Origin: Heterodontus francisci
Taxonomy: Eukaryota
NCBI RefSeq assembly: GCF_036365525.1
Contig: NC_090418.1
Span: 10,602,856 to 10,666,855 of the forward strand
DNA: 64,000 nt
Direction: 5' to 3'
The notes beneath the pieces are model-generated. The model made no database searches. It saw nothing but the letters and a program-made list of their open reading frames with translations, and was not told where the DNA came from. This document shows, piece after piece, positions 9,608 to 61,227 of the stretch. The translations under genes and the position numbers were made by a program. Position 1 is the first letter of the stretch. Each line of letters starts with the position of its first letter.

Positions 9608-12245
9608 CTAGTTCAATGGTGTTTGGTTATGTTTCCTGTACAGGAACAAGGCTATCAATGAAGCAGAGATCAGACAGACAGCTGTCACAGTCAGGGCTAC
9701 AATCAGGACCACCTCAAACTCCACACCTACAAAGCAATGAGAAACCAATGGTTAGTGAAGGAAACACTGAGGGGAAAATGGAAACTAGCAGTCAGCCAAC
9801 TCACCACCTGGAGACCTTTTCAGCCTTCGCTCAACCTCATTCAGGGATGCAGTTGCCAAGTCAGTCACCTCAGTATCCAGAATGACCAGGGGTCCAAGTG
9901 AGGCCTCACCCTCCCACTTCAATCCAGCTTCACTCTCTGCAATATCAAACATGCCAGTTAGAGGGGTAAAGGGAGACCTCCCACATCTAGAGGATCAATG
10001 TCCTACCAGCTTCAGGTACAAGATCCCTCCATCCTCTGGAAGGAAATCGGAACTCCCTTGTGGCACCACAGTTACCCACATGGCAACAGGCACAAATGTC
10101 ATTGTTGGATTCCTCCAATGGGGTCCAGCTAAACAAGAGAAACAGTTGATCAACCAGGTTGTCAATCACACTTCCAAACAACATCCCTGAGAGGAGAGGG
10201 AACTTACACATTCTGCATCTTGTGGAAAGTACAAGCTTTGTTCATAGAATCTCTCCGATCCACTGGAGCAACTTTCAGGTGACATGTAATGAAAATCTGT
10301 GGGATAAATTTCAACACAAGTTATTTAGTGACTCCTCCCAATATAGAGAGCCCAATGATCAGCTTCCACTTACCAAGGAACGGTCACCTGCAAAGAAGCG
10401 GAAAGCATCCAGGTCAAACTGGAGCTTGTCCAGCTCACGCTCGTCTCTTGGCAACACGAAGGTTGAAAAGGAGTCCTCAGCTTTGCTGTCCAGGAGGCAA
10501 CTGGAGAAAGATTCAAAAAGGGACATGAAGTGAATCAAGTGAAGCCATTGAGATGGGAGCAGCTGGAGAAAGCAGAGAGCTCCTTACCCATTGTAGTCAA
10601 TGATGCTGTATCTCGGGGTGGAATCCTTGTCTGGGCTCAATGTAGCTACACAGCGGTCAATGTAGAGCTTCAGGGGCATGTGGTTGGTCATTGAAACAGA
10701 GGCCTCAATGTGAATGAGGTCACCCAGGTAGTAGACAGTCGAGGTGCGCTCTGTAAGCCAGTCATCTGAAGTACAAGAGGACAAGGGTTGAAGACAGTGG
10801 GTACAACTCCCAGTGGGTGAGTACAGGAAATCACTCCCCATCCACCCATCACATACCATTCATTAGGCGCAGAGAGAATGACAGATGCCCTTCTCCAGAC
10901 TTGGTGGAGCTGAATGGGATCCAGGTGGGCTTGATGGGGTTACTGCTCACATTCCCCTTCCTGGAAGGATAGGAGAGTTATTTTAGGACAACTTCAGAGA
11001 ACTTGCATTGGACTGAAAATTCATTAATAAAAATCACTCATCTATTACCTAAAATAATGACACTCGATGGGAACGACAGCTCCATTTGTTCTCACAATGA
11101 CAGATCCATGATACTGGGGGGTGTGGTTCAGGTGGGTGGTGTAGACCAGGAAATCTCCAGCCATCTGAAAGACATCAGGTAAAGGAATTGATGAACTGAT
11201 CTCAATGGAAGATATTTATCTATATTGGTCAGCAACAGGAATTGCTGAATATTGGTATTGAACTAGCTACTCAAGCACTCCCTGTAACTGTTCGATCCCC
11301 CTTTATTGGAGGACACTTCCAGCCTGCAAACCAAAAACCCTAAATCCCACAGAAAGAGCTCCCATGTAAACATCCAAGTGAGCTGCCAGTTACCCTGCTC
11401 TGGAACACCAAACCATTATTCATGGACTCACTGAAGTAATTCTCAGCTGTAATTGCTCAAATAGAAACACCAAAAACAGAGCTGCCTTGAATATATTAAA
11501 ACCCAACTGCACTGGTTTAGCCTTCAAAAATGGAAGCCACACAAGATGGAATTTCTTGACTGTGAATGGAGGAAGCAGGTGTCAATGAGAGACAGGAAAG
11601 GAAGGACTAGCTTGAAGAAAACAGAATAATAAGGTTTGAGAGCAGGTGATACAAGTTAAAGGCAACAACATCTGAGTGTTAAGCTTCTTTCCGATACTTA
11701 CCAAAAACAAAATAAATAGTTAGGGTGAATGTTAACAGAGAGACAGTACACAGAGACAGGAACAAGTCTTCATGAATGTTCAGGAAATCAGTGTTGAAAA
11801 TGTACACATGAAGTTTAGAACAAGAGTCAATGACTCACATTACCTGTAATCTGCTGCCACACTCATGGAGCCCATAGTCAAAGAGGACAGTGTGGTTCTG
11901 AGAGTAGATCCTGGTCGGCCGACAACCTGCTGTCCCCAGGGTCAGGTCAGCAGCTTTAATCAGATGCCTGGTTCCAAATAAATCCATCTGGACCCTGACC
12001 AGCAGGTTCTGCTCTCCACACTGCACCATCACAGTCTGCAGTGGAGACACACTTCGACCCTCAGACACACGGAAATGGGAACCAAAGGGAGGCCCAGTTG
12101 GAGGGACTCTCTGAGGCACAGGGGTGGCTTTTACTCTTCTCCATGGAAACCTCTGGTCTCGAAACTGTTGCCAAGTATCAGAACAACAGACAACTCCAAC
12201 TAACACCAGCACTGGGAACAAACCCCTCATTACAAAATCCCCCAT
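9608..12245 (-). CDS. ZP3: ZP3-type zona pellucida/egg-envelope glycoprotein, copy 1 (462 aa, 9 exons)
   Basis: Exons (-): 12245-11844, 11164-11049, 10960-10857, 10765-10588, 10500-10374, 10296-10208, 10128-10007, 9936-9805, 9726-9608. All introns GT-AG, phases consistent, 1389 nt total. Signal peptide [25 protein letters not shown] (VQCGE, DLFGT, LHECG, IECHY); linker NVSS..PTWIPF; ZP-C ([37 protein letters not shown]); [38 protein letters not shown]. The start could alternatively be the ATG at 12230. Confidence 0.93.
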
Positions 12246-12289
12246 GATACCAAACAACTCAACCATCCCTTCACCCACCAACCAGCTCC

Positions 12290-12480
12290 TTTTATACACA
12301 CAACCTGCAGTCACCTGACACCAATGATCCCAGAAGCAGCAACATTGAGCCAATTAACCAGCTCCAATCTCCACAATTTCCACCCAATGACAGAACCCAT
12401 GGATGTATTGGTTGGAGGGCCTATTTTATTTAGACCAATAGGAGTGACTCTGAGTTGGCCCAGTGTCACCTGACACAAAT
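12290..12480 (-). promoter_or_regulatory. ZP3 copy 1 proximal promoter: TATA, six CCAAT boxes, two E-boxes
   Basis: TATAAAA at 12296-12290; CAGGTG at 12317-12312 and 12472-12467; CCAAT/ATTGG at 12321, 12350, 12364, 12384, 12407 and 12435. The block is largely conserved in all four copies. Confidence 0.75.
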
Positions 12481-58314: not shown

Positions 58315-58327
58315 GAAAATTCAATAA

Positions 58328-61227
58328 CTAGTTGATCAGAGTTTGCTTGTGTTTCCTGTACAGGAACAAGGCTATCAATAAAGCAGAGATCAGACAGACA
58401 GCTGTCACAGTCAGGGCCACAATCAGGACCACCTCAGACTCCACACCTACAAAGCAATGAGAAACCAATGGTTAGTGAAGGAAACACGGAGGGGAAAATG
58501 GAAACTAGCAGTCAGCCAACTCACCACCTGGAGACCTCTCCTGCAGCCTTTGCTCAACCTCATTCAGGGACTCCATTGCCAGGTCAGTCACCTCAGTATC
58601 CAGAATGACCAGGGGTCCAAGTGAGGCCTCACCCTCCCACTTCAATCCAGCTTCACTCTCTGCAATATCAAACATGCCAGTTAGAGGGGGTAAAGGGAGA
58701 TCTCCCACATCTAGAGGATCAATGTCCTACCAGCTTCAGGTACAAGATCCCTCCTTCCTCTGGAAGGAAATCGGAACTCCCTTGTGGCACCACAGTTACC
58801 CACATGGCAACAAGCACAAATGTCATTGTTGGATTCCTCCAATGGGGTCCAGCTAAACAAGAGAAACAGTTGATCAACCAGGTTGTCCACCCTTCCAAAC
58901 AACATTGAAGAGAAAAGGAACTTACACATTCTGCATCTTCTGGAAAGTACAAGCTTTGTTCATGGAATCTCTCCGATCCACTGGAGCAACTTTCAGGTGA
59001 CAGGTGATGAAAATCTGGGACATAAATGTCAGCACAACAAACTTAGTGACACCTCCCAATATGGAGAGCCCAATGATCAGCTTGCACTTACCAAGGAACG
59101 GTCATCTCCAAAGAAGCAGAAAGCATCCAGGTCAAACCGGAGCTTGTCCAGCTCACGCTTGTCTCTTGGCAACACGAAGGTTGAAAAGGAGTCCTCAGCT
59201 TTGCTGTCCAGGAGGCAACTGGAGAAAGATTCAAAAAAGGGACATGAAGGGAATCAAGTGAAGCCATTGAGATGGGAGCAGCTGGAGAAAGCAGAGAGCT
59301 CCTTACCCATTGTAGTCAATGATGCTGTATCTCGGGGTGGAATCCTTGTCTGGGCTCAATGTAGCTACACAGCGGTCAATGTAGAGCTTCAGGGGCATGT
59401 GGTTGGTCATTGAAACAGAGGCCTCAATGTGAATGAGGTCACCCAGGTAGTAGACAGTCGAGGTGCGCTCTGTAAGCCAGTCATCTGAAGTACAAGAGGA
59501 CAAGGGTTGGAGACAGTGGGTACAACTCCCAGTGGGTGAGTACAGGAAATCACTCCCCATCCACCCATCACATACCATTCATTAGGCGCAGAGAGAATGA
59601 CAGATGCCCTTCTCCAGACTTGGTGGAGCTGAATGGGATCCAGGTGGGCTTGATGGGGTTACTGCTCACATTCCCCTTCCTGGAAGGACAGGAGAGTCAT
59701 TTTAGGACAACTTCAGAGAACTTGCATTGGACTGAAAATTCATTAATAAAAATCACTCATCTAGTACCTAAAATAATGACACTCGATGGGAACGACAGCT
59801 CCATTTGTTCTCACAATGACAGATCCATGATACTGGGGGGTGTGGTTCAGGTGGGTGGTGTAGACCAGGAAATCTCCAGCCATCTGAAAGACATCATATT
59901 GAAGCAGGGAGATCAGACCAAAAAAAGGAAAATACTCTGTACAGGAGTTAAGAATGAAGTGATCCTAACAAAACAGTTCTTAGTGGGCTTGACAGGGTAG
60001 TGCTGAGTCAGTTCCCCAACTGACTAGTAAAATTAAGAAGTGTAGACTCAGATACAGGGTCACTTGCAGTTGACGTGATTAAAAAAAGCTTCATTCAAAA
60101 AGCCATGAATCTTTGGAATTCTCTACCCGAGACAGACAAATCCTCATGGATGATATTCAAGATGGATGGATATCTTTTTGGGCATAAAGTGAATCAGAAT
60201 GAGATGAGGACATGGAATTTGAGGAGAAGTTTAAGCACAATCTTAAAAGCAGCTAGAGGGGCTGTACAGCATGTTGCTCTGGAGAATTAACACAAGTAAA
60301 AAAGGAGAGACTGTGAGCACAAGAACTAAACAAAATAAGTGAAGCTGTCCTTTTGGGCCATTCCCTTAACAGCCACAAGTTACAGCAATTTAGAGCTCTG
60401 AAATAAACCAGTCTTGAAGCAGGGCTGCACATAATCCAGTTACAGGGAAAGCAGGAAATGTGGCATCAAATCTGATTTTTCATTCTGTTCATTGAAGAGT
60501 CAACCAGATTAAATAAAACTGGACTGAAACTGAAGATTCAAGTTGAGTTTAATGAGGGGCAGTAGAACTGAAAAAAAATTAATGAGGATAAGAAAAAAAA
60601 AAGGAAAGCTTGGAGACCAAAGAGAAGGTTCAAAACCAATTGGGCTGATAATACAAGGTAGGAAAGAAGGAGACTGGATAAAACAAAGTACAATACACAA
60701 CTAACAAGATTGAAGTTTGATAATGCAGGAGACAGACATCTCAATGATATTTCACAATGTATTGGAATGAAGAGTTAGCAACAATCTACACACCCAGCTT
60801 AGAGCAAGAGTCAAGGACTCATTACCTGTAATCTGCTACCACACTCATGGAGCCCATAGTCAAAGAGGACAGTGTGGTTCTGAGAGTAGATCCTGGTCGG
60901 CCGACAACCTGCTGTCCCCAGGGTCAGGTCAGCAGCTTTAATCAGGTGCCTGGTTCCAAATAAATCCATCTGGACCCTGACCAGCAGGTTCTGCTCTCCA
61001 CACTGCACTGTCACAGTCTGCAGTGGAGACACACTTCGACCCTCAGACACACGGAAATGGGAACCAAAGGGAGACCCAGTTGGAGAGACTCTCTGAAGGA
61101 CAGGGGTGGCTTTTACTCTTCTCCATGGAAACCTCTGGTCTCGAAACTGTTGCCAAGTATCAGAGCAACAGACAATTCCAAATAACACCAGCACTGGGAA
61201 CAAACCCCTCATTACAAAATCCCCCAT
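58328..61227 (-). CDS. ZP3: ZP3-type egg-envelope glycoprotein, copy 4 (463 aa; unrelated intron 1)
   Basis: Exons 61227-60826, 59883-59768, 59679-59576, 59484-59307, 59218-59092, 59014-58926, 58852-58731, 58659-58525, 58446-58328. GT-AG introns, no stops seen, RGRR. Confidence 0.9.

Follow-up and report, generated by a model that had tools for sequence, protein, structure and literature searches.

The geometry of an anti-Lepore hybrid gene is defined by the HBB/HBD duplications of mammalian beta-globin clusters (PMC4041002). In the parts of that report that deal with these duplications, the 5' part of the downstream gene is joined to the 3' part of the upstream gene with intact parents flanking; the hybrids were diagnosed by discordant 5' and 3' non-coding sequence, and were duplicated again in some lineages. 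Here, we describe a similar arrangement in a 64,000-nt window of Heterodontus francisci (contig NC_090418.1, positions 10,602,856 to 10,666,855). The window contains four intact nine-exon ZP3-type genes (c1 to c4, Table 1), all on the minus strand and transcribed in the order c4, c3, c2, c1 along the edge of an array. As in the beta-globin clusters, c2 and c3 join a 5' part like that of downstream c1 to a 3' part like that of upstream c4; these putative parents lie on both sides with intact frames, and the intergenic DNA is duplicated. The locus differs from those clusters in that the array has 30 copies, retains both putative parents and encodes parental proteins with 95% identity.

Amplification of egg-coat genes has been described in other lineages. 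Tandem ZP3/ZP4 amplification is reported in catfish, with ZP3 at at least 20 tandem copies (PMC13704971), and lineage-specific ZP duplication is presented as general (PMC6262864). In the passages concerned, such amplifications reach about 20-30 tandem or segmental ZP3-like copies, as here, and are interpreted as egg-coat dosage supply; those passages report no hybrid genes, in contrast to the present array. The main text of PMC6262864 contains no occurrence of 'gene conversion', 'shark' or 'cartilaginous'. Hybrids attributed to unequal crossing-over or conversion among tandem paralogues are known for the glycophorin GYP(B-A-B), the CYP11B1/B2 chimera and the chicken BG genes. In the accounts consulted, those hybrids alter antigen, regulation or expression, whereas c2 and c3 are known only as sequences. 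Neither hybrid ZP3 genes nor an array of ZP3 in any shark turned up in the literature searched, which covered few subscription journals; the available portions of PMC8455134 and PMC8830517 hold nothing on either subject, and the main text of bioRxiv 10.1101/2025.06.08.657570 has no occurrence of 'zona pellucida', although its supplements on tandem clusters may list ZP arrays. Overall, c2 and c3 are a new instance of a known process, and no new function or mechanism is demonstrated.

A search of the genome with exon 4 returned 30 places at 98-100% identity on one contig (C48, 10.61-11.52 Mb) and 6 weaker matches away from this array. We compared 604 kb of sequence in total, including 53 tiles that cover 530 kb of the cluster, the tile before the window and six tiles around the weaker matches. 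Full genes were found at all 30 places, with intact frames in 26. When the genes were typed by intron 1 and 3' flank, in that order, c1 was A/A, c2 and c3 were A/B, c4 was B/B, and copies g05-g07 and g19-g22 were B/C. The proposal of the initial annotation that c2 and c3 join a copy-1-type 5' half to a copy-4-type 3' half agrees with marker, intron and tree evidence, and the mosaic in c2 and c3 is real.

The contrast is seen in the introns and flanks. Intron 1A of c2 is 96.8% identical to that of c1, and this intron type is scarcely, if at all, homologous to the 8 remaining intron-1 types (z ≤ 7, versus up to 164 among those), which are mostly homologous to one another. The first 15 nt of intron 1 in c2 match the type of c4 and are likely a conversion patch. 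At the other end of the gene, introns 5-6, exon 9 and the 3' flank of c2 and c3 are 97-99% identical to those of c4; this 3' part is common to c2, c3 and c4 only. Ten shared-derived columns in introns 5-6 are present in these three genes and in none of the 26 other copies.

Marker columns, at which c1 differs from c4 and c2 equals c3, gave the same picture (the 5' part was counted without intron 1). The two inner genes sided with c1 at 16 of the 22 columns 5' of exon 3, at 3 of 8 from exon 3 to exon 5, and at only 5 of 53 from intron 5 onward, where they sided with c4 at the other 48. The contrast between the 5' and 3' parts was significant (Fisher p = 1e-7, with indel columns being non-independent). 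Moreover, trees of the two halves were discordant rather than congruent: the 5' tree joined c1, c2 and c3 (support 85/93, not among the starred nodes) and rejected a c2-c3-c4 clade (p-AU 9.4e-6), while the 3' tree joined c2, c3 and c4 (100/99). The 88-nt intron-2 type was found in c1-c4 and in 8 other copies.

Table 1. Coordinates of the genes, introns, spacers and switch interval (positions in the window).
Feature	Position	Strand	Description
c1 (gene A)	9608-12245	-	Intact, 462 aa; last array member; outlier intron 1 and outlier 3' half
c2	27351-29982	-	Intact 463-aa hybrid; intron 1A and c4-type 3' half
c3	45406-48037	-	Intact 463-aa hybrid; intron 1A (99.6% to c1) and c4-type 3' half
c4 (gene B)	58328-61227	-	Intact, 463 aa; 5' part of the type of the neighbouring ~36.7-kb unit family
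Intron 1, type A	c1 11165-11843; c2 28906-29580; c3 46958-47635	-	3 matches genome-wide
Intron 1, type B (of c4)	59884-60825	-	96-98% to 7 copies outside the window
Switch interval	10334-10978 in c1; ~28075-28719 in c2; ~46127-46771 in c3	-	Bounded by flanking shared-derived markers
Spacer S1	12246-27350	.	Several retroelement fragments with reverse transcriptase
Spacer S2	29983-45405	.	1.15% from S1, 1.41% from S3; mosaic of both
Spacer S3	48038-58327	.	Without 4,554 bp at 48291/48292
c1 3' flank	8658-9607	.	Non-homologous to the flank of every other copy type; one X1 contig letter-identical

The unit that is repeated, present in three instances, consists of the 3' half of a c4-type gene, a spacer and the 5' half of a c1-type gene, so that it starts and stops within genes. 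The three spacers are 1.15-1.94% apart, with some kilobases differing by only 0.3-0.4%. When S1 was divided into 37 tiles, 29 had no match of at least 90% outside S1-S3 within the 604 kb, and the remaining 8 lay in or beside reverse-transcriptase frames. Each unit carries private differences, comprising substitutions and indels of 391, 584, 960 and 4,554 bp. The largest of these, a deletion in S3 with 2-nt microhomology, lies about 255 bp upstream of the c3 start codon and places a GC-rich retroelement fragment at that distance from it. The longest identical tract between units measures 1,259 bp, so the single haplotype seen offers a substrate for the copy-number polymorphism that the initial annotation considered probable. 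No unplaced contig contained exon 4 or intron 1A.

We consider it likely that c2 and c3 arose by intragenic unequal crossing-over, as an anti-Lepore duplication at the edge of the 30-copy array. Crossing-over of this kind had been put forward in the initial annotation, and it is locally the best reading of the geometry, the triplicated spacer and the discordant trees, with a polarity (c1 and c4 parental, c2 and c3 derived) that we infer. Intron 1 and the flanks are anciently diverged, whereas gene conversion would have kept the core from exon 3 to exon 5 alike. As old neighbours, c4 and c1 would then have mispaired in this core and crossed over, producing the first hybrid, and further unequal exchange and conversion would have produced the second. 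In favour of this polarity, both outlier halves sit in c1, since its intron 1A is an outlier, its 3' half stands furthest away among the four genes and its flank is unrelated to the others. In addition, c4 is related to its upstream neighbours both in intron 1 (97-98%) and in the 3' flank (69-75%). The two-gene ancestor that the initial annotation placed at the start of this process is possible as a local state only, the four genes being the end of a 30-copy array.

The position of the crossover can be given only as an interval. The switch had been placed at exon 3/intron 3, near the linker between ZP-N and ZP-C, but it is not placeable there: about 450-650 bp, from exon 3 to intron 5, hardly vary among the copies. 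Shared-derived markers of the c1 type end at 10979, in intron 2, and the first c4-type marker at 10333 (in none of the 26 other copies) or at 10531 (weak, also in 5 other copies); accepting the latter, in intron 4, narrows the interval to 10532-10978. The markers from 10978 to 10334 interleave (3 c1-type and 5 c4-type), most of them being states seen in c1 only or in c4 only. The exon 3/intron 3 breakpoint was rejected: its basis is site 10791, at which c1 differs from all 29 other copies, yet c1 also has 6 private sites of this kind in the 5' region, although c2 and c3 are of c1 type there.

The stretch from exon 3 to exon 5 is the most uniform of the family, at about 98-99% identity in all 30 copies. 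Mean pairwise difference over these copies was 1.2-3.0% from exon 3 to exon 5, versus 15-22% in introns 2, 5 and 6. Exons were 97-100% alike across the 30 copies while the flanks are old; coding sequence is thus far more alike than the flanks and the phylogenies are patchy, as under concerted evolution. Over the whole family, incompatibility of nearby informative sites was 0.22, versus 0.32 in permuted data (p = 0.001); nearby sites are more compatible than permuted ones, as recombination predicts. The breakpoint likely fell in the core because exchanges would resolve in the longest shared near-identical tract, and not because of proximity to the linker.

Several results weigh against the origin by anti-Lepore duplication, or at least against its simplest form. 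The 3' alignment did not reject a c1-c2-c3 clade (p-AU 0.084), the untranslated region (UTR) and flank having been omitted from it, the flank because it is unalignable across all copies. The mid-gene tree came out unsettled between groupings. The spacer mosaic is not reproduced by one or two clean crossovers: S2 resembles S1, then S3, then S1 again, and a clean two-crossover order could not be recovered from the spacers. No contig of the four sequencing runs described below spans intron 1A to intron 5. Finally, c4 changes from the type of its upstream neighbours to that of c2 and c3 within the same exon 3-5 core. Its introns 5-6 differ by 22-33% from those of g05 and g06, despite 99% identity over 35 kb upstream (99.0-99.1% to the next two units). 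Relative to these neighbours c4 is, on these figures, a mosaic, and since it matches g05 and g06 upstream but not in introns 5-6 it may itself be a fusion gene.

This behaviour of c4 is what a reversed polarity would explain. The c2/c3 type would then be parental and duplicated as a whole gene, c4 would have come from a Lepore-type deletion that fused it with the upstream 36.7-kb unit family, and c1 would be a fusion with a lost downstream gene. The c4 promoter, intron 1 and upstream 35 kb, 97-99% like those of g05 and g06, accord with this, as does the terminal copy of the mirror arm, g23, which likewise departs from its unit type within the gene. We nevertheless regard the reversed polarity as unlikely, because it requires two deletions in addition to a whole-gene duplication, because the outlier intron 1 and the outlier 3' half occur together in c1, as one old gene would show, and because the 3' flank of c4 is related to that of its neighbours.

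Conversion alone could in principle have given a similar picture, if whole-gene tandem duplicates had been homogenised in their inner parts while the outer halves drifted, with no intragenic crossover. Conversion is indeed pervasive in this family, as judged from the uniform exons among old flanks, and the 3' half of g05 groups with that of g08. This explanation is very unlikely, however: the outer half of c4 has not drifted but is 97-99% like that of 7 other copies, the c1 3' flank lacks homology right from the stop codon, and the triplicated 10-15 kb spacer is left unexplained. An assembly artefact, with haplotypes joined wrongly or duplicated falsely to give c2 and c3, is hardly credible, for although the spacers are only 1.2-1.9% apart, with the near-identical kilobases noted above, and no aligned contig crosses a junction, the units have private substitutions and indels of up to 4,554 bp, the 604 kb contain no N, and the contig depths of run X1, albeit weakly, scale with the expected copies.

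For these depths, contigs of four runs were aligned to c1 and its flanks; contig depth is no copy number. In X1, depth was 3.5 on the c1 flank, 15.7 on intron 1A, 146.6 on the shared core and about 6 on the c1 exon-8 allele. Taken as ratios, flank, intron 1A and core stand at about 1:3-4:30-40, which lends weak support to the assembly. The flank and intron-1A contigs were single and identical to the assembly, and X1 may be the assembled sample. Run X5 (organism B) covered intron 1A thinly and the c1 3' flank not at all, its depth being insufficient for any conclusion. For two contigs of X6, a run taken by guess to be RNA, the alignments break off precisely at exon boundaries, which weakly suggests that some copy yields spliced transcripts. 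In run X9 (organism D), contig depth reached 7,020 at window 10645-10891 (intron 3 and parts of exons 3-4), versus 147 in X1, which would reflect either a much larger amplification or a targeted library, this depth having no single-copy control.

The two end genes are less singular than the initial annotation had it. The c1 3' half, called unique, does have an exon 8 of 132 nt (28 other copies have 135 nt and the remaining one 134), an HNQTPLN tail and its own intron-5/6 variants, and its 3' UTR and flank are absent from all 29 other copies. Nevertheless, it retains about 94% identity with c2-c4, and all four genes have the first half of intron 5 in common; the nearest copy in the array is 5.8% away, which makes this half an outlier. 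Similarly, the 5' part of c4 is unique inside the window, but its intron-1 type occurs in 8 of the 30 copies. Among the intron-2 variants attributed to c4, 'gtactag' is private to it, whereas 'gagtcatttt' is the majority state, found in 21 of the 26 other copies.

Exon 4 matched the ZP module (PF00100) above the curated cut-off in all 30 copies, the four window copies scoring 47.1-47.7 bits versus a cut-off of 24.6. The module region contains 12 cysteines and a CACC...C cluster, which may represent the ZP3-specific Cys-rich subdomain that closes ZP-C. Visual inspection of the translations indicated a signal peptide, a single ZP module with no extra ZP-N or trefoil domain, a furin-type site, an external hydrophobic patch, a transmembrane segment and a short tail, which is the layout given for ZP3 in PMC7155028. 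The putative assignment of the array genes as ZP3-type is based on this layout and on the PF00100 match.

The consequences for the proteins appear small. In ZP-N, a single residue of 103 distinguishes c1 from c4, and there c2 and c3 match c4; in ZP-C, c1 and c4 show 6 differences in 162 residues. The suggested shuffling of ZP-N and ZP-C halves thus created no new domain pairing, the two ZP-N being nearly equal and the hybrids matching c4 at the single difference. The c2 and c3 proteins are near the array consensus, c1 being the odd protein. An increase in dosage, also suggested, holds insofar as two genes were added, but it is small, with 2 among 30. The likely outcome was two near-consensus egg-coat genes under the 5' region of c1, a small dosage gain and no new domain pairing.

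Some residues of the end genes deviate from the array. An RGRR furin-type site was present in 24 of the 26 intact copies but not in c1 (RGWR, window 10031) or in g16. A 3-nt deletion in c1 exon 8 (window 9818-9830) creates RLKR beyond the hydrophobic patch. Altered processing of c1 is possible; when a furin site is mutated, cleavage at other sites can compensate (PMC7155028). In c4, exon 5 (region of window 59118) encodes an extra cysteine, R301C, giving 13 cysteines versus 12 in c1-c3, and this residue is probably unpaired.

Elsewhere in the array, mean identity among the intact proteins was 94.8%. The non-intact copies comprised one with a frameshift and three with the same premature exon-7 stop; in the latter (g06, g07 and g17; L007, L011 and L024), an identical CGA-to-TGA change occurs on two different flank types and would reflect either repeated decay of a CpG or the spreading of one stop through conversion. 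A large palindrome (C48:10.79-10.93 Mb, L013-L027) is made up of copies g08-g18, with its centre near g13 and arms 96-98% alike, in which g10 and g16 have a 1.1-kb intron-5 insertion in common, while g04-g07 and g19-g22 form 28-37 kb units. Copies g25-g30 (C48:11.457-11.522 Mb, L045-L052) combine a different promoter and exon-1 start (87-89%) with a consensus gene body, and are likely another hybrid set. No exon-4 or intron-1A match was found in C48:11.087-11.430 Mb, where other partial copies could still sit.

On other contigs, isolated gene fragments were observed: exon 4 at 96% (L054, C3), exons 3-4 at 90-92% (L055, C43) and exons 5-6 at 82-85% (L058, C42); these are possibly retrocopies. 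Two more ZP-domain arrays were also found, at C2:223.0-225.1 Mb (24 PF00100 matches) and C36:45.56-45.81 Mb (10 matches), and several egg-coat-type genes appear to have been amplified in this genome. Inside the window, outside the genes and spacers, positions 86-1018 hold a GDSL-lipase-like frame (Pfam PF13472, E 2e-13), which is probably a retroelement ORF1, and positions 3151-3615 a 69-bp tandem repeat of 6.8 copies.

A further, quite doubtful suggestion is that c1 is an old, functionally distinct paralogue at the array edge, that the hybrids were kept because they place a normal, polymerising 3' end under the c1 5' region, and that the exon 3-5 core acts as a recombination hub for the swapping of halves. 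If this were true, c1, which has lost the canonical furin site and gained another beyond the hydrophobic patch, may be processed without release of its polymerisation block. On the favoured reading given above, the locus provides a clean natural example of anti-Lepore duplication within a large egg-coat array, with both putative parents kept. Exon trees are misleading for these copies, whose history is recorded by intron 1 and the 3' flank.

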